This document shows, piece by piece, positions 8,461-23,595 of a stretch of 28,872 nucleotides of DNA. The stretch comes from an uncultured Methanosarcinales archaeon. Lineage in GTDB: Archaea; Nanobdellota; Nanobdellia; Woesearchaeales; UBA9642. The translations under genes and the position numbers were made by a program. The notes under the pieces are model-generated. The model made no database searches and was not told the DNA's origin. It saw only the letters and a list, made by a program, of their open reading frames with translations. Numbering within the stretch: position 1 is the stretch's first letter; each line of letters starts with the position of its first letter. The stretch lies in the NCBI GenBank assembly GCA_964594025.1, contig CAZQLC010000003.1:1-28872 (forward strand). Reading direction: 5' to 3'.

Positions 8461-10357
8461 ATGTTATCTATAATCTACCTGAGTATTATTCTTTCTTTCC
8501 TAGTTTCCATAGGCTTATTAGTATATCTGCTAAAACAGGACCAGGGGACAAAAGAGGTAAAAAATATTTCATTATTAATACAGGAAGGCGCAACCACTTT
8601 CCTTAACAGGCAGTATATAGGTGTTGCAATTTTTGTTGTTTCTTTTTGTTTTATAATATTTTTCACACTCCATTCTTTTCATCTTATTATTGCTTTTATA
8701 CTGGGGGCATTGTTCTCAGCACTCGCAGGAAGATTAGGAATGACAGCAGCCACCAAATCAAATGGAAGGACTGCATGGGCATGTGAAAAATCTGAGGAAA
8801 GAGGAATGAAAATAGCATTCTTTTCCGGCTCTGTTATGTCTTTTTTAGTAATAGGCCTCAGCCTTCTGGGAATAACTGTATTATTTTATATTTTTGAAGA
8901 TGCATCTATTTTATTTGGATTTGGATTTGGTGCAAGCAGCATTGCATTATTTGCAAGAGTAGCCGGCGGGATATATACTAAAAGTGCTGATATTGGCGCT
9001 GATTTAGTCGGCAAGGTGGAAAAGAAACTTCCTGAGGATGACCCAAGAAACCCTGCTGTTATAGCAGACCTCGTTGGAGATAATGTGGGTGATGTGGCAG
9101 GAATGGGTGCTGACCTTTTTGAAAGCTATTCTGATGCTATCATAGCAGCAATAGCAATAGGCTCTGTTGCAGGGGCATTCTTTAATTCATTACTTCCTTT
9201 AGTTATAGCCTCTCTCGGGGTTTTTAGCTCTATACTCACAATACCTTTTGTAAAAGGCAAGAATGCATTGACAAAAGGGATAATAATATCTTCTGCATTA
9301 ATGGTTATCTTTTCATTCATAATTATAAGAGCATTGTTCCAGATAGAATTATTTTACTGTATACTTACAGGATTGGTTTATTGCTATATATTATACATCT
9401 TATAATTTTTCCCCTACAAGAGAAATAGTAAAAGAAGCAAAAACAGGCGCTGCCACTGCTGTACTTGCGGGCCTTGGGCAGGGAATGCTGTCCTCATTCA
9501 TACCTATTATAGTCGTGTCAATCTCAATTTTAGTTTCATATTATTTTGCATCCATCTATGGGATTGCAATAGCTGCTGTGGGCATGCTAAGCACTCTCGG
9601 AATTACACTTGCTGTTGACAGTTATGGGCCTGTTGTTGATAATGCTGAAGGCATTGCAGAAATGGCCAAACTGGGGAAAAAGACAAAAGAAAGGGCAAGC
9701 AGGCTTGATGCAATAGGCAATTCAACTGCAGCCCTGGGCAAGGGGTTTGCAATAGGCTCAGCTGCCCTTACTGCACTTGTATTATTTGTGATTTATTCAG
9801 AAAAAATAGGCTTGGAAACAATAAGCATAACAAATCCTAATGTTGTCGCAGGCCTTCTTATAGGGGCGGTCATACCATTTATATTCTCATCAATGACAAT
9901 AAAAGCTGTAAGTTCCACTGCAGCAAAAGTGATTGAAGAAACAAGAAAGCAGTTTGAGGAAAGAATACAAAAAGGAGAAAAACCCCTTTACAAAAGATGC
10001 ATCTCAATTGTGACTGACTCAGCTCTGAAAAAAATGTCTTTGCCTACATTGCTTGCTGTATTTTTTCCAATAATAATAGGGATTTCCCTGGGTAAAGCTG
10101 CCCTTGGTGGATTTCTTGCAGGAAGCATCAGCACTGGTTTTGTACTTGCTGTAACAATGGCAAATTCAGGAGGAGCCCTTGATAATGCAAAGAAATATAT
10201 TGAGGATATTGAAAACAAAAAAGGCACGCCATGGCATAGCGCGGCTGTGGTTGGTGATACTGTCGGCGACCCACTGAAGGATTGTGCCGGGCCAAGCCTG
10301 AATATCCTGCTTAAATTAATGACTATTGTTTCACTCGTTTTTTTCCCTTTATTTTAA
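8461..10357 (+). pseudogene. hppA: Membrane-bound ion-pumping pyrophosphatase (K+-dependent type), split by a +1 frameshift near 9376
   Basis: Fragment 1 has GGIYTKSADIGADLVGKVE...PEDDPRNPAVIADLVGDNVGDVAGMGADLFESY. Frame 2 resumes at about 9377 with FIAIYYTSYNFSPTREIVKEAKTGAAT and continues through DSYGPVVDNAEGIAEM, DAIGNSTAALGKGFAIGS and [10 protein letters not shown]. Could be a sequencing or assembly error rather than a true pseudogene. Confidence 0.85.
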
Positions 10358-16612: not shown

Positions 16613-17818
16613 TTAATTCAGACCACAGCCGCTTATCCTTGATAAGTCATCAAGTGTCTGCTCGCCTTTGTATATCTCATTATTTATAATCCATGTGGGA
16701 TATCCCTTTACATTGGCATCATCACAAACTTCTTTCTGTATCTGCGGGTTTTCCTCGACCTTGCAATCAACAAACTGAAGGTATCTGTCAAAGAATCCCT
16801 CAAACATCTCTATCTGGTCTACGTTGTTTTTGTCATAGACATATAAGACAGCCCCTTTCTCTGCGAGACATTCTGCAAATCCTGCTAAATCCTCAGCTTC
16901 TGTCTCCTCTGTTGTTTCTTCCGCAGGTTCCTCTTCTACTATAATCTCCTCCCCGAATTCTTCAGCAGTTTCATTGGTTATGTTTTCTTCTGTGGTTATG
17001 TTTTCAAAACTGACATTAACCACTGTGATGTTCTCTTCAGCAGTTTCATTTATCAGAGTTTCATCAGCTATGGTTTCATTTTCTGTGATATTCACTATTT
17101 CATAGCCGGCAGTTTCATCTTCAAGATAAATCTCAATATCTGCTTTTTCCCTTAATTTATTTATGAATTCTGTAATTGCCTGCTGCTGTTTCTGGGACTC
17201 GATGAACATTTTTATGTTTTCAGAAACATTTTCATAAGATACATTAAACAAGTCTGAATTCTGGTTATAATACTCCTCTGCTTCCTCATCAGTAACATTG
17301 ATATCCTTTAAGACTTCTGAAAACAGCTTATCGATAAGTATTTTCTTTGTATATACCTCCCTGAAATCATCCATTGTCATCCCTTCCTCATCCAATGCAT
17401 CTTGCAATTCTGTAAGGTTCATCAGGTTGTTGATCATAAAAAGGTATATGGTAGTATTAAGTTCCTGCTCACTGACAGTCATATTCCTGGAATATGCCTC
17501 TTCAATAAACAGCTGCTGGTTGATTAACTCATCAAGCAGCCCTTTTTTCCCCAATAATGACTGGTATATGGGTGAAAGCCTTCCATAACTCTCATCCAAC
17601 TCCTGCATTGTAATCTCCCTTCCGTTAACTCTCGCAGCCAGTTCTTCTTTTGTTAAAGGCAGGTTAAGGTTAAGTATAACTATTGCTACAGCAGCAATAA
17701 CCAGAACACCTGTAAGAATAAAAAGCCATGTCTTATCTTTTTTTCCGGGATTATTTTTTCTGGATTTATTTCCGTTCTTTTTTCCATTCTTAGATTTTTT
17801 TCTTTTATTATTAGCCAT
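16613..17818 (-). CDS. Membrane-anchored SurA/PrsA N-terminal-domain protein with a sequon-rich acidic stalk and a C-terminal thioredoxin-like domain
   Basis: Basic N-tail plus one TM helix. AARVNGREITMQEL...LDELINQQLFIEEA...VSEQEL matches SurA-N. The C-terminus FAECLAEKGAVLY...VDC...C...VKGYPTWIIN...GEQTLDDLSRISGC resembles the thioredoxin-like domain seen with VKOR. GGTG RBS present. Confidence 0.75.
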   Translation of the reverse strand: MANNKRKKSKNGKKNGNKSRKNNPGKKDKTWLFILTGVLVIAAVAIVILNLNLPLTKEELAARVNGREITMQELDESYGRLSPIYQSLLGKKGLLDELINQQLFIEEAYSRNMTVSEQELNTTIYLFMINNLMNLTELQDALDEEGMTMDDFREVYTKKILIDKLFSEVLKDINVTDEEAEEYYNQNSDLFNVSYENVSENIKMFIESQKQQQAITEFINKLREKADIEIYLEDETAGYEIVNITENETIADETLINETAEENITVVNVSFENITTEENITNETAEEFGEEIIVEEEPAEETTEETEAEDLAGFAECLAEKGAVLYVYDKNNVDQIEMFEGFFDRYLQFVDCKVEENPQIQKEVCDDANVKGYPTWIINNEIYKGEQTLDDLSRISGCGLN

Positions 17819-18519: not shown

Positions 18520-21150
18520 ATGACAGATTTCAAAAAGACAGAAAAGAAATGGCAGGACAGATGGGATAAGAAGAAATTATTTCAGGTTAAGAAAGACAAA
18601 AACAAAAAAAAGTACTATGTTCTCGTAATGTTCCCCTACCCATCAGGCTCCGGACTGCACATGGGTCATGCATTTAATTATATTGTGGGGGATATAATCT
18701 CAAGGTTCAAAAAGATGCAGGGTTATAATGTTTTACACCCTATGGGATATGATTCTTTGGGGTTACCGGCGGAAAATGCAGCCATAAAACAAAAAGAGCA
18801 CCCCAGAAAATATACTGAAAAGGCAATAAAGAATTTCATGGTCCAGCAGAAATCCCTTGGGATTAGTTATGACTGGTCAAGAACTGTTGAGACACATTCC
18901 CCTGAATATTATAAATGGGACCAGTGGATTTTTCTTAAAATGTTTGAAAAAGGCATAGCTTTCCAGAAGGAATCACCCGTTAACTGGTGCCCCAAATGCA
19001 GGACAGTATTGGCTAATGAGCAGGTCCATAACGGAAAATGCTGGAGGCATGAGGATACAAATGTCGAGATAAAGCAGCTGAAACAATGGTTCTTCAGGAT
19101 AACTGACTATGCTGATGAATTATATGAAAGCATCGATTCCCTGAAAGGATGGCCTGAAAGAACAAAGGCAATGCAAAAAAACTGGATCGGGAAAAGCCAT
19201 GGAACTGAGATAGATTTTGAGATTGGAAATAAAAAATGGAAAATATTCACAACCCGCCCTGACACAATTTATGGAGTCACATTCATGGTTGTCTCTGCAC
19301 AGCATCCTGAACTTTCTGAGCTGGTTACAAAAGAGCAGGAAAAAGAAGTTGAGAAATTCCTTAAAAAACTAAAATCAGTAAGTGAAAAAGAGATGGAGGA
19401 GATGGAAAAAGAAGGTGTTTTCACAGGCTCGTATGCTGTTAACCCAATGACAAATGAAAAAATCCCGGTTTACGCAGGTAACTTTGTCCTTGCTGATTAT
19501 GGCTCCGGAATGGTAATGGCTGTCCCTGCACATGACCAGAGGGATTTTGAATTCGCTAAAAAATACAATATCCCTGTAAAAATAGTCATACAGCCTGATG
19601 CATATGACATAAACCCTGAAAAGATGTCAAGAGCCTATACAGGAAACGGCAGAATGGCCAATTCAGGGAAATTCAATAATTTGCCGAATACAATTGCAAT
19701 TAATAATATTACTAAATATTTAAAAGAAAAAAACAAGGGAAGAAAAACAACCCAGTATAAATTAAGGGACTGGTGTATCTCAAGGCAGAGGTACTGGGGA
19801 ACCCCTATACCTATAATATACTGTGATAAATGCGGTGTTGTTCCTGTTCCTGAAAAAGAATTACCTGTTAAACTGCCTGAAAAAGTAAAATTCGGAAAAG
19901 GGAACCCTCTGGAAACAAATAAGGATTTTGTAAATGTAAGATGCCCTAAATGCAACAGGAATGCAAAAAGGGAAACTGACACCATGGATACTTTTGTGAA
20001 TTCATCATGGTATTTTCTGAGGTATTGTGACCCGAACAATGACAAAAAAATATTTGATAAAGACAAAGTAAAATACTGGATGCCTGTTGACCAGTATATA
20101 GGCGGGGCAGAGCATACCTGCATGCACCTGATTTATTTCAGATTTTACACTAAATTCTTAAGGGACATTAGACTTATTAATATAGATGAGCCTGCACTAA
20201 AACTATTCCACCAGGGAATGCTTCACGGGCCTGATGGAAAGGTCATGTCAAAAAGCAGGGGTAATGTTGTCCTTCCGAAAGAAGTCTCTGAAAAATACGG
20301 CATAGACACTGCAAGGCTGTTCCTTGTTTCAATAGGCTCCCCTGACAAGGACCGGGTATGGAATGAAAAAGGAATCCAAAGCAGCCTTAAGTTCATTGAA
20401 AAGGTATATGATTTTGTAAAGAATTTCAAAGGGAAAAAATCCCCCCATATAATTGAATCAAAAATTCATAAAACCATAAAGACAGTTACTGATAATATAG
20501 AGCAGTTCAGATATAATCTTGCTGTGATAAAACTAAGGAAATTATTTGAGAGTATTTATGAAGAAAAACAGATAAGCAGGAAAGACATTGAAAGCTTCCT
20601 GAAAATGCTTGCCCCATTCTGCCCCCATATATGTGAGGAATTATGGGAAAAACTCGGCAATAAAGGCTTTATTTCTGAAGCAGAATGGCCTGAATATGAT
20701 AATAAAAAAATAGATGAAAAAGCCCTGTATTCAGAAGATTTTATGGAAACAGTAAGAGATGATATCGTAAGCATAATGGAAATCACAAAAAAAGGAAGAA
20801 AAGATATATCTAAAATCAGCATATATATAGCAGACGAATGGAAATATAAATTATATAAAGAGATAAAAAAAGCTATGGAAAAGACTCAGGACATCAATGG
20901 AATAATGAAGATGGTAATGAAAACAGAATTCAGGAAATACGGCAAGTATATTTCCAAAAACCTGAAAACAATGGTAAAACAGATGCCTTCTATAGTAACT
21001 TCAGCAAAAGAAGAGAAAAAAGAGATTGAAAATGCATTTAAAAAAATCATTGATTTTAAATGTAACGTAATTATAAAGGATGAAAAGGAAGCAGATGAAA
21101 AAACAAACAAAAGGTCTCTTCCCGGAAAGCCTGCTATTGTCATTGAATAA
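18520..21150 (+). CDS. leuS: Leucine-tRNA ligase, bacterial-type core with an archaeal-type C-terminal domain
   Basis: MFPYPSGSGLHMGH (HIGH), FTTRPDT and AVPAHDQRD (editing domain), RDWCISRQRYWGTPIP, and VMSKSRGN (KMSKS). Ends IYIADEWKY...SLPGKPAIVIE. Confidence 0.95.
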   Translation: MTDFKKTEKKWQDRWDKKKLFQVKKDKNKKKYYVLVMFPYPSGSGLHMGHAFNYIVGDIISRFKKMQGYNVLHPMGYDSLGLPAENAAIKQKEHPRKYTEKAIKNFMVQQKSLGISYDWSRTVETHSPEYYKWDQWIFLKMFEKGIAFQKESPVNWCPKCRTVLANEQVHNGKCWRHEDTNVEIKQLKQWFFRITDYADELYESIDSLKGWPERTKAMQKNWIGKSHGTEIDFEIGNKKWKIFTTRPDTIYGVTFMVVSAQHPELSELVTKEQEKEVEKFLKKLKSVSEKEMEEMEKEGVFTGSYAVNPMTNEKIPVYAGNFVLADYGSGMVMAVPAHDQRDFEFAKKYNIPVKIVIQPDAYDINPEKMSRAYTGNGRMANSGKFNNLPNTIAINNITKYLKEKNKGRKTTQYKLRDWCISRQRYWGTPIPIIYCDKCGVVPVPEKELPVKLPEKVKFGKGNPLETNKDFVNVRCPKCNRNAKRETDTMDTFVNSSWYFLRYCDPNNDKKIFDKDKVKYWMPVDQYIGGAEHTCMHLIYFRFYTKFLRDIRLINIDEPALKLFHQGMLHGPDGKVMSKSRGNVVLPKEVSEKYGIDTARLFLVSIGSPDKDRVWNEKGIQSSLKFIEKVYDFVKNFKGKKSPHIIESKIHKTIKTVTDNIEQFRYNLAVIKLRKLFESIYEEKQISRKDIESFLKMLAPFCPHICEELWEKLGNKGFISEAEWPEYDNKKIDEKALYSEDFMETVRDDIVSIMEITKKGRKDISKISIYIADEWKYKLYKEIKKAMEKTQDINGIMKMVMKTEFRKYGKYISKNLKTMVKQMPSIVTSAKEEKKEIENAFKKIIDFKCNVIIKDEKEADEKTNKRSLPGKPAIVIE

Positions 21151-21224: not shown

Positions 21225-21683
21225 ATGAACAAAAAGGGGATATCTCCGTTAATAGCTACTGTATTGCTTATATCATTCAGCGTAGCTTTAGGCACGATGG
21301 TCATGAGCATAGGGAGGCAGGTTGCAGACACTAGGGGGGAATGCGAGGGAGTTATTCTTGAGATACAGCAGCTGAATAATAAAGCTGTTTTATGTTATAA
21401 CAGTTTTGAATCCAGAATAAATATAATCCTTAAAAATGTGGGGAGTACTGAAGTAAACGGGCTGAAGATGAGGATAATAGATAGTGATGAAAAGATAAAA
21501 GAAGTAAATATCTCAAACTCAAAGATACTGGTGGGGGGAATATTCAAAAGAGATATACCTTATGACAATGGAAAAGGATTTTACATTGAGTTTATACCTT
21601 CTGTGATGGAAGAAACCGGAGAGGTTATATACTGCCCTGGAAAAAGCGTTTCCATTGACGGAGTTCCGTTATGTTCTGTTTGA
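21225..21683 (+). CDS. Archaeal type IV pilin-like protein (class III signal peptide)
   Basis: MNKKG/ISPLIATVLLISFSVALGTMVM is a canonical PibD cleavage site followed by a hydrophobic helix. Four Cys in the globular domain. Confidence 0.85.
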   Translation: MNKKGISPLIATVLLISFSVALGTMVMSIGRQVADTRGECEGVILEIQQLNNKAVLCYNSFESRINIILKNVGSTEVNGLKMRIIDSDEKIKEVNISNSKILVGGIFKRDIPYDNGKGFYIEFIPSVMEETGEVIYCPGKSVSIDGVPLCSV

Positions 21684-21691
21684 GAATATAA

Positions 21692-22693
21692 TTATTTATA
21701 GATAAATTCCTTTAATCCCTTGTTTTCATTTCTTAATTTTTTCAGAGATATTTCTTTGATCTGATTTACCCTTTCTCTTGTTATGTTAAATAATATTCCT
21801 ATTTCTTCCAGAGTATGCTCTCTTTTGCCGTTTAAACCATAATAAAACTCAAGAATATTTCTGTCCCTGCCTTTAAATTCCCCCCTTGATTCTAATTTAT
21901 CCAAGGCTTTTGAAAGTTCATCGTGAAGCCTGTTTTTCCTGTAATCATCTTCAGGCATACTTTCTTTACTAGGAATAAGCTCGCTCCTTTCATCTCCTTC
22001 TTCATTAAAAGGAGATGATTCATCAAGTGAAACAAATTCTGTGAATGCTGATTTTAAAGTATATTGACTATATCTTAAATCAAGCAGTTCATTGATCTCA
22101 TCCAGAGTGGGCTTATAGCCATACTTATTCATAAACTTCTTCTCTGCTTTTTTAACTAAACTTATAGAATATGAAAGATTAGCAGGCATCCTGATTGTTC
22201 CAATCATTTCAGATATGTGCCTATAAATTCCTGATTTTAGCCAGAAATCTGCATAGGAAATAAATTTTATCTCTTTATCTTTATTATTATTCCTGAATTC
22301 CTTACAATAATACTTTTCCGCAGCTGTTAAAACCTTCTCTAATCCTGCCTGTATCATGTCCTCCTCCTGCAAGGATTCCGTAGAACTGAACTTAAAATAA
22401 ATACTCCTTGCTGAACTTATGAAAAAAGGAATATTGCGACTGACAAGTATGTTCTTTGATAATGTCCTTATATATTCTTCTGGAACAATTCCGTTTTCTG
22501 CTTTTTCTTTAAGTTCATATTTTTCAAGAGTTGAAATCTTGGGGATTTTTTTAATGGCTGTTTTAAGCTTTTTATATCTTCTAGGATTATCCCTTATATA
22601 AGCTAACTTAATCTCCTCTTTTGGCTCTAATTGCTCCACATTTTTAAGATTGCCGTCCTTAAAATCCTTGGGAACTAAATCATAATATACCAT
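21692..22693 (-). CDS. Sigma-70 family (RpoD/SigA-like) protein
   Basis: Region 1.2-like KIPKISTLEKYELKEKAENG; 2.1 LVSRNIPFFISSARS; 2.2 EDMIQAG; 2.3/2.4 KFISYADFWLKSGIYRHISEMIGTIRMP; region 3 YGYKPTLDEINELL...VSLDE; region 4 RDRNILEFYYGL...HTLEEIGILFNITRERVNQIKEISLKKLR. Confidence 0.9.
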   Translation of the reverse strand: MVYYDLVPKDFKDGNLKNVEQLEPKEEIKLAYIRDNPRRYKKLKTAIKKIPKISTLEKYELKEKAENGIVPEEYIRTLSKNILVSRNIPFFISSARSIYFKFSSTESLQEEDMIQAGLEKVLTAAEKYYCKEFRNNNKDKEIKFISYADFWLKSGIYRHISEMIGTIRMPANLSYSISLVKKAEKKFMNKYGYKPTLDEINELLDLRYSQYTLKSAFTEFVSLDESSPFNEEGDERSELIPSKESMPEDDYRKNRLHDELSKALDKLESRGEFKGRDRNILEFYYGLNGKREHTLEEIGILFNITRERVNQIKEISLKKLRNENKGLKEFIYK

Positions 22694-22800
22694 TTTTTCA
22701 TATAATCTTTACTATCTAAAAGTAATAATAACTAAAATATTTAAATATCTTTCCCTTTTAGCAGAATATATATAAATAACAAATTATTAAACAATAAAAA

Positions 22801-23595
22801 ATGAGAATAAATATCAAGTTTACAAAATCCCTGGAAGAGAATGCCTCATATTATTTTGAAAAGTCTAAAAGAGCAAAACAGAAATTAGAGAAGACCAAAA
22901 AGGCACTGAGGGATACAAAGAAAAAGCTGGAAAAAGCAGAAAGAATTACCAAAGAAGAGATAAAAGAGGAAACAAAGAAAAAGAAACTGAAAAAAGTCAT
23001 AAAAAAGAAAAAATGGTACGAGAGTTTCAGGTGGTTCATATCATCAGATGATTTTCTTATAGTCGGGGGAAGGGATGCAACTTCAAACGAAATTATAGTT
23101 AAAAAACATGCATCCGGAAATGACCTGGTGTTTCATACACAGATGGCAGGAAGCCCTTTTGTTGTTATAAAAAATCCCCTGAATAAAGAAATACCTGATT
23201 CAACAATACAGCAGGCTGCTGATTTTTGTGTAAGCTTCAGCAAAGCATGGGGCGAAGGATTACAGACTTCCGAAGTATATTATATAAAACCAGAACAGGT
23301 TTCTAAAAAAGCAAAATCAGGAGAATATCTTGGAAAAGGGGCATTCATGATTTACGGTGAAAGAAATTATCTTAATGGTAAACTTAATGTTGCTGCAGGG
23401 AATTATAAAGGAAATACCATGTCCGGGCCTGTTGAGGCAATTGAAAAACACTGTAATAAATATATAATTCTGAAAAAAGGAAAAGAGAAGAAAAGCGAGC
23501 TTGCAAAGAAAATAAGGCATCTGCTTGATTTAAATGATCTTGATGAAATAATAAGGTTCATACCAAAAGAAGCTGAGATTGAAGAAGTAATTTAG
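22801..23595 (+). CDS. NFACT RNA-binding-domain (DUF814) protein, short Rqc2/NEMF-related form
   Basis: SLEENASYYFEKSKRAKQK coiled coil, then KWYESFRWFISSDDFLIVGGRDATSNEIIVKKH...FHTQMAGSP...GEYLGKGAFMIYGERNY. Confidence 0.88.
   Translation: MRINIKFTKSLEENASYYFEKSKRAKQKLEKTKKALRDTKKKLEKAERITKEEIKEETKKKKLKKVIKKKKWYESFRWFISSDDFLIVGGRDATSNEIIVKKHASGNDLVFHTQMAGSPFVVIKNPLNKEIPDSTIQQAADFCVSFSKAWGEGLQTSEVYYIKPEQVSKKAKSGEYLGKGAFMIYGERNYLNGKLNVAAGNYKGNTMSGPVEAIEKHCNKYIILKKGKEKKSELAKKIRHLLDLNDLDEIIRFIPKEAEIEEVI

Follow-up and report, generated by a model that had tools for sequence, protein, structure and literature searches.

A remodelled sigma-70-family gene resident in a Woesearchaeota archaeon with an archaeal RNA polymerase

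The sigma-70-family gene and its genomic setting

The DNA analyzed here (the window, 28,872 nucleotides (nt) in length) is an entire contig (C3) of a metagenome-assembled genome (MAG) of 845 kb, which consists of 96 contigs and is 83.7% complete and 0.16% contaminated. The host MAG belongs to Candidatus Woesearchaeota (DPANN), and the sequence was found in salt-marsh metagenome runs. An intact open reading frame (ORF) on the minus strand, 21692-22693, encodes a protein of 333 amino acids (aa) that belongs to the sigma-70 family, and the gene is resident in this archaeon. In textbooks, initiation of transcription in bacteria and in archaea is told apart by sigma factors on the one hand and TBP/TFB on the other. 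The persistence under selection of sigma genes next to an archaeal polymerase only therefore poses a functional question. The gene and the segments of its product are:

21692..22693 (stop codon included), minus strand: sigma-70-family gene, identified by Sigma70_r4, RpoD alignments, the SigA fold and an orthologue
Residues 1-32, minus strand, upstream of the 1.2-like helices: lineage-specific segment with a low-confidence model
22469..22597, minus strand: weak region 1.2-like helices (residues 33-75), seen by full-length RpoD models only
22199..22468, minus strand: remodelled region 2 (2.1-2.4; residues 76-165) with inserts of 5 and 8 residues
21959..22198, minus strand: regions 3.0-3.2 with the sigma-finger loop (residues 166-245), sub-cut-off Sigma70_r3 match
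21695..21958, minus strand: region 4 (residues 246-333) with a near-canonical 4.2 helix-turn-helix and a 6-residue insert in 4.1

The Pfam model Sigma70_r4 (PF04545) matched residues 276-322 with 42.3 bits (cut-off 24.1) and the NCBIfam superfamily model TIGR02937 reached 50.2 bits (cut-off 42.9), which places the protein in the sigma-70 family. Sigma70_r3 (PF04539) scored 19.4 bits over residues 177-243 and did not reach its cut-off of 25.3, and neither Sigma70_r2 (PF04542) nor Sigma70_r1_2 was matched in the Pfam scan at E ≤ 0.01. Residues 80-165 align to region 2 of the RpoD models and of SigA chains. The full-length NCBIfam RpoD models cover residues 19-331, with every score far below the curated cut-off: the top model gave 121 bits (cut-off 500) and RpoD_Cterm 113 bits over residues 80-330 (cut-off 354), while PRK09210 aligns residues 33-331. 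The best sequence matches in the PDB were cyanobacterial SigA chains (E 9e-32, residues 78-331).

The first-pass annotation had described a group 1/2-like sigma factor with regions 1.2, 2, 3 and 4 and without region 1.1. Region 4 was borne out by the Pfam profile, regions 2 and 3 appear to be present from the RpoD alignments and a SigA-like model, and region 1.1 was absent from the RpoD profile and sequence alignments. For region 1.2 the description holds in part, as a weak alignment to the full-length models and predicted helices within residues 37-66, with Pfam Sigma70_r1_2 left unmatched. The low scores, the missing region 1.1 and the substitutions W433F, R436K and Q437S (E. coli RpoD numbering throughout) set the protein apart from the group 1 (primary) RpoD/SigA factors.

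An AlphaFold2 model built on a 100-sequence alignment was confident and well packed, with a mean predicted local distance difference test score (pLDDT) of 81.6. Values of 88-98 were obtained across residues 251-330, and values below 50 in the segments 1-12, 14-16, 18-22 and 30-34. Helices are predicted at residues 37-48 and 55-66. In a Foldseek search against the PDB, the first 50 matches all had a probability of 1.0; they are sigma chains of holoenzymes or initiation complexes (SigA/RpoD and one RpoS) and one SigA-RpoC integrative model. Judged by this model, the sigma2-sigma3-sigma4 fold is kept.

The residency of the gene was established by comparison with an independent assembly. A Candidatus Woesearchaeota MAG from another study has an orthologue (84% protein identity) on a contig of 74 kb, and its flanking genes follow in the same order over about 17 kb with 83-88% nucleotide identity. 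This synteny excludes a chimeric assembly, one of the two scenarios named in the first-pass annotation as fatal to its observation. Support across the gene boundaries, for which it had proposed read pairs or long reads as a check, came from Logan contigs of several salt-marsh runs: the 5′ boundary into the NFACT gene is bridged by contigs of 1557 and 1237 nt, and the 3′ boundary is barely spanned by one contig of 158 nt. The GC content of the sigma gene (31.8%) is close to that of the genome (32.7%) and its tetranucleotide usage is typical for the genome.

The second scenario, a bacterial or viral contig, is contradicted by the archaeal DnaG, RqcH, TBP, TFB and RpoA1 of the host. That the gene is a product of misassembly or mis-binning, or belongs to a bacterial or phage genome, is thus barely credible: the MAG is fragmented and incomplete, and another sigma from the order has a near-identical counterpart in an 'uncultured bacterium' record, but the gene order is repeated in the independent Woesearchaeota contig, archaeal genes lie on both sides, the composition is that of the genome, independent contigs cross the boundaries and phage sigmas are no nearer than cellular ones.

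Next, the transcription machinery of the host was examined. The archaeal DnaG encoded in the window scored 503 bits (equivalog cut-off 300); TBP and TFB are encoded elsewhere in the genome, and RpoA1 was found with 1195 bits, above its cut-off. In the host genome, at its given completeness, the models of bacterial rpoA, rpoB and rpoC gave sub-cut-off matches only, at the archaeal Rpo1, Rpo2 and Rpo3 homologues. The same was found for a genome of the same genus (G001, 91% complete), and bacterial rpoB did not exceed the cut-off in four further genomes of the order that carry a sigma gene; these are 95-100% complete, and one is assembled as a single contig. The view of an archaeal genome without a bacterial-type RNA polymerase was therefore upheld. 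Since no bacterial core polymerase was found in the genome, we infer that the protein cannot act as a classical sigma factor. Additional sigma genes in the host genome were rejected, as the two weak Sigma70_r4 matches found elsewhere in it are TFB and a DUF134 protein.

The flanking genes, an archaeal pilin and an NFACT gene according to the first-pass annotation, were confirmed with the reservation that the pilin models remain below their cut-offs:

21225..21683, plus strand: archaeal pilin-like gene, left flank (UpsA-like and archaellin/type IV pilin N-terminal models, both sub-cut-off)
22801..23595, plus strand: stand-alone NFACT-C / RqcH C-terminal gene of 264 aa, right flank (NFACT-R_1, 124.5 bits)

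The NFACT-C gene matches positions 381-640 of RqcH_arch. Matches to it were obtained in 190 of the 201 genomes scanned in the order; those listed fall within open frames of about 255-300 aa, which suggests a split or truncated rescue factor throughout the order.

In a scan of the family, a sigma match was found in this genus only: among 18 other genomes the single match was in the same-genus genome G001. In six sigma-less genomes of four sibling genera, the pilin gene and NFACT-C are immediate neighbours in the same orientation. The adjacency was also found in other families (G075 and G214, and G027 with a small ORF in between). None of the other sigma matches listed for the order is located near the NFACT-C gene of its genome. 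Because sigma-less relatives show the adjacency, the simplest reading is that the sigma gene and its upstream region were inserted in the ancestor of the genus, separating the pilin and NFACT-C genes, which had been neighbours before. The acquisition is thus polarised, the pilin/sigma/NFACT-C arrangement being confined to this genus among the genomes searched. At the insertion junctions no convincing target-site duplication was found, the relatives' junctions being too diverged to align. A 13-nt inverted repeat (21692-21704 / 22767-22779) is AT-rich and may be due to chance.

Several other genes of the window were recorded. Beside RNase J, 16613-17818 encodes a protein of 401 aa whose N-terminal chaperone domains resemble bacterial SurA, a further bacterial-type product of the archaeal contig. 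The leucyl-tRNA synthetase (LeuRS; 18520-21150) matches the bacterial-type model TIGR00396 over residues 3-735 with 945 bits, over the cut-off, and its C-terminal part (515-876) matches archaeal LeuRS models; the orthologous locus (L024) carries about 580 extra nt at the position that corresponds to 19242/19243 of the window. The H+-pyrophosphatase is distributed over two ORFs (8461-9405 and 9485-10357; profile positions 2-319 and 356-645) that lie 80 nt apart. The gene may be genuinely split, be a pseudogene or have been misassembled.

Residue changes, relatives and selection

For the analysis of conserved residues, 81 bacterial primary sigmas from many phyla were used as reference, and positions conserved in at least 90% of the bacteria were regarded as universal. 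The window copy keeps 37 of 62 universal positions. The losses are unevenly distributed: 22 of the 25 changed positions are in region 2, where 13 of 35 are kept (2.1-2.4), compared to 24 of 27 in regions 3.0-4.2. The latter comprise 8 of 9 in regions 3.0-3.2, including all four in 3.2, and 16 of 18 in regions 4.1-4.2, with 12 of 13 in region 4.2 alone.

Retained residues are N383, D403, Q406, F427, Y430, W434, R451, R584, E585, R586 and Q589. Substituted are R385P, E407A, N409L, W433F, R436K, Q437S and R588N. In sigma-70 factors, these residues serve core docking, melting of the −10 element and recognition of the −12 and −35 positions. E407, N409, W433, Q437 and R588 are each kept in 32-38 of the 41 other Woesearchaeales sigmas and lost in the window copy, which by this sequence comparison is unusual even among the sigmas of its own order.

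The substitutions bear on the proposal of the first-pass annotation that the protein could be an effector acting on the polymerase of a bacterial partner. Such a protein would be delivered to the partner or compete in it, or would titrate a bacterial-type factor. DPANN archaea are regarded as symbionts (PMC8204110), and in its overall fold the protein resembles a bacterial primary sigma. However, six universally conserved positions of core docking or promoter reading are changed (R385P, E407A, N409L, W433F, Q437S and R588N), the N-terminus, read by eye only, has no hydrophobic signal-like stretch, and the profile scans of the window revealed no secretion genes beside the sigma gene. As the conserved core-docking and −10-reading residues are replaced, the effector reading is disfavoured and appears very unlikely.

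Sigma genes were found to be common in the order. Of the 201 sampled genomes, 74 have an RpoD_Cterm match at E ≤ 1e-10, ranging from near-canonical (384 bits) to very diverged, with the window copy at the diverged end. Not every sigma in this count needs to be archaeal, since a near-canonical sigma (L014) of the Woesearchaeales genome G032 (G032:C67, 6% contamination) is almost identical to L062 from an 'uncultured bacterium' record, and either bin is possibly mis-assigned. Most other Woesearchaeales sigmas keep the bacterial signature of docking, −10 melting and −35 reading, and the checked genomes are without a bacterial RNA polymerase. Many of them are fused to long extensions at the N-terminus, with frames of 450-1760 aa, or form tandem arrays; G057:C3 holds four tandem copies.

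The search for close relatives of the window copy yielded few sequences. In a library of 1.8 billion representatives, E 1e-30 was passed only by the protein itself and by P0058 (E 7e-36), which lies in a bacterial context among type IV pilus genes. The next matches had at most about 39% identity, and both matches with a checked genomic context are bacterial, that of P0060 being cyanobacterium-like. The orthologue (83-84% identical) was retrieved by a word-index search and a genome scan. In a tree of 124 sigma2-4 sequences (42 from Woesearchaeales and 81 bacterial), the window copy and its orthologue share a stem as long as 3.88 substitutions per site, without a supported sister, and the smallest supported set that contains the pair has 54 mixed rows. 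On these sequence data the donor lineage cannot be named. The phylogeny suggested in the first-pass annotation thus resulted in a long stem that cannot be placed. A phage origin was rejected, as phrog_351 and tblastn searches against phages gave at most 34% identity, no closer than cellular sigmas.

The orthologue pair was further used for the analysis of selection. Regions 2.2-3.0 are 94-100% identical between the two proteins (94-100% for 2.2-2.4 and 100% for 3.0), and region 4.2 is the least conserved with 70%. The number of nonsynonymous substitutions per site (dN) is 0.089, which is comparable with the neighbouring genes. The ratio to the synonymous substitutions (dN/dS) is 0.22 for the sigma gene and 0.05-0.13 for its neighbours. 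This higher ratio is partly due to the low dS of the sigma gene (0.40 compared to 0.63-0.92). From these substitution rates, the sigma gene is under purifying selection. A dS of about half that of the neighbours may reflect constraint at the nucleotide level or recent recombination. In addition, a stretch of 150 nt (22092-22241, about residues 151-200) is 97% identical to the orthologue at the nucleotide level, in comparison to 82-85% in the surrounding genes.

The part of the protein that differs most from the bacterial sigmas, in docking and −10 reading, is therefore the part most conserved between the orthologues, which suggests a new function. Slow decay of a relic, whose function was lost for lack of a core polymerase and of which little or none is left, would be compatible with the 25 changed universal positions (22 of them in region 2), the stem of 3.88 substitutions per site, the dN/dS above that of the neighbours and the restriction of the sigma to this genus among 19 genomes of the family searched. 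It is unlikely in view of an ORF left intact in both species, the neighbouring genes of which are separated by a dS of 0.6-0.9, of a dN no higher than that of the neighbours, of the 94-100% identity in regions 2.2-3.0, of the conserved promoter region (91.6%) and of the confident, well-packed model. Constraint is at present strongest on the remodelled region 2, and a new function therefore fits better than decay.

Promoter context and predicted function

The region upstream of the sigma gene is shared with the divergently transcribed NFACT-C gene and contains the following elements:

22694..22800, no strand: divergent intergenic region between sigma and NFACT-C, 91.6% identical to the orthologue compared to 82-87% in the surrounding genes
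22752-22738, minus strand: AAAGATATTTAAATA, resembling a TFB recognition element (BRE) followed by a TATA box, identical in the orthologue
Near 22762-22779, plus strand: TATA-like run of the NFACT gene

An archaeal-looking upstream element had been noted in the first-pass annotation. AAAGATATTTAAATA is indeed present and conserved in the orthologue; the coordinates were one base off, and its distance is not the modal one. Its TTTAAA starts 52 nt before the sigma ATG, with the first T at 22745, whereas the modal TATA position in the genome is 25-36 nt before the start codons. AAAGATATTTAAATA is compatible with an archaeal promoter followed by a short leader and is no proof of it.

TATA-like TTTAWA hexamers were enriched upstream of the host genes, with 402 occurrences of TTTATA compared to 201 in shuffled sequences. 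Their peak at 25-36 nt before the starts is as expected for largely leaderless archaeal transcripts. Promoters of the sigma type were sought as well and rejected: upstream of 722 genes there was no excess of TTGACA-N16-18-TATAAT-like pairs or of TTGACA. Canonical sigma-70 −35/−10 pairs upstream of genes numbered 139, compared to 164.6 ± 14.3 in the shuffles.

In bacteria, region 2.2 of sigma binds the clamp helices of the beta-prime subunit, the homologue of which is the clamp coiled coil of archaeal Rpo1N. The complex of the sigma protein with residues 1-345 of the host's own Rpo1N (P0207) was predicted. Confident contacts were predicted between Rpo1N 241-268 and 287-292 and residues 77-88 and 106-122 of the sigma protein (regions 2.1/2.2), in the geometry of the bacterial holoenzymes. 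Rpo1N 241-268 is the clamp coiled coil and was aligned to E. coli beta-prime 260-309; its predicted interface with sigma 77-88 and 106-122 is testable. The verdict of the docking procedure was 'weak support', with a score of 0.54 and 0.03 for the best of three controls. Among solved complexes, 51 of 78 attained this mark, as did 2 of 108 mismatched pairs; a pass at 0.60 or less was seen for only 5 of the 78 solved complexes and for all 4 passing mismatches (of 180). The adaptation to the archaeal clamp suggested in the first-pass annotation is thereby raised modestly, as a lead from a computed complex.

In the pairwise alignment, R275 and E295 of beta-prime correspond to I245 and L265 of Rpo1N. 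In the bacterial holoenzymes, E407 and N409 pair with beta-prime. That archaeal sigmas in general replaced these two residues by hydrophobic ones as a fit to the archaeal coiled coil was rejected, since most Woesearchaeales sigmas keep both. For the window copy, a possible co-adaptation of the two positions to the archaeal coiled coil is a lead from the alignment.

The reading we favour, with a probability of roughly one half, is a sequence-specific DNA-binding regulator in the archaeon's own transcription, in which region 4.2 reads the DNA and region 2/3.0 serves as contact surface. The near-canonical helix-turn-helix of region 4.2 would read DNA, and the remodelled and now tightly conserved region 2/3.0 would offer a surface for contact with protein or DNA. 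A candidate partner of region 2 is the clamp coiled coil of Rpo1N. A repurposed DNA-binding regulator was also among the proposals of the first-pass annotation; it fits the 12 of 13 universal positions kept in region 4.2, and the function itself is a prediction.

Several results weigh against this reading. The supposed DNA reader, region 4.2, is the least conserved region in the orthologue pair, and the dN/dS of the gene exceeds that of its neighbours. The universally conserved docking residues E407 and N409 are replaced. Canonical −35/−10 pairs are not enriched upstream of the genes. No RNA run was among the runs listed for the sequence, and the salt-marsh runs X1-X4 that hold it are DNA only. 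The docking result is weak, and because sigma/beta-prime complexes have been solved in abundance, the pass may show likeness rather than binding.

Two further readings involve the archaeal polymerase more directly. A sigma factor re-fitted to the archaeal enzyme, with region 2 on the Rpo1N coiled coil (the TFE/Spt5 site) and region 4 reading DNA, is quite improbable; if true, it would represent a route of bacterial-style promoter-specific initiation or regulation on an archaeal enzyme. Equally improbable is a true initiation factor, docked on the Rpo1N coiled coil and responsible for promoter-specific initiation by the archaeal polymerase at some of the genes, either in place of TBP/TFB or together with them. 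The canonical-style interface predicted, with its weak support, between sigma2 and the coiled coil points to it, as do the retained melting residues F427, Y430 and W434, the four universal positions of region 3.2, the helix-turn-helix of region 4.2 and the constraint on regions 2.2-3.0, which is the highest in the protein. However, the docking score may stem from a memory of bacterial holoenzymes, the docking signature is altered by E407A and N409L, a sigma-type promoter signal was not seen in the genome, and TBP/TFB are present together with TATA-like hexamers at the usual distance before the starts.

Comparison with known systems

Sigma-70 genes of DPANN archaea were reportedly described by Rinke et al. 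in Nature in 2013. With the bacterial group 1/2 sigmas (RpoD/SigA and RpoS), among which cyanobacterial SigA (PDB 8h3v, 8gzg and 9dvs) matches best, the protein shares the sigma2-sigma3-sigma4 architecture and fold, the near-canonical helix-turn-helix of region 4.2 and the melting aromatics F427, Y430 and W434. It differs from them in the missing region 1.1, the weak region 1.2, RpoD scores far below the cut-offs, the 25 of 62 universal positions that are changed and the inserts in regions 2 and 4.1. Furthermore, no cognate bacterial core RNA polymerase was found in the genome.

The functional analogue of sigma for the archaeal polymerase is TFB/TFIIB (PMC7289017). The host's own TFB gives a sub-threshold match to Sigma70_r4. 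TFB consists of a zinc ribbon and cyclin repeats and thus represents another fold and family, and the host has an ordinary TFB besides the sigma protein.

The first-pass annotation was right in expecting sigma-like genes in other DPANN genomes. Sigma-70 genes (fam00359) are prevalent in Woesearchaeota, where mis-binning was checked and the mechanism was left unexplained (Castelle et al., 2021; PMC8204110). No functional study of Woesearchaeota sigma-70 genes was found in a literature search. DPANN sigma-70 genes are therefore already published, and the copy described here adds one more member. Like those of fam00359, it is a sigma-70 gene of a Woesearchaeota archaeon whose genome also encodes TBP, TFB and an archaeal RNA polymerase, and mis-binning is excluded by the co-encoded archaeal genes: the sigma gene lies on an otherwise archaeal contig with DnaG, RqcH and the pilin. 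It differs from the other DPANN sigmas in its RpoD_Cterm score of 113 bits (up to 384 bits in the others), in a closest non-orthologue of about 39% identity and in an insertion point that can be identified.

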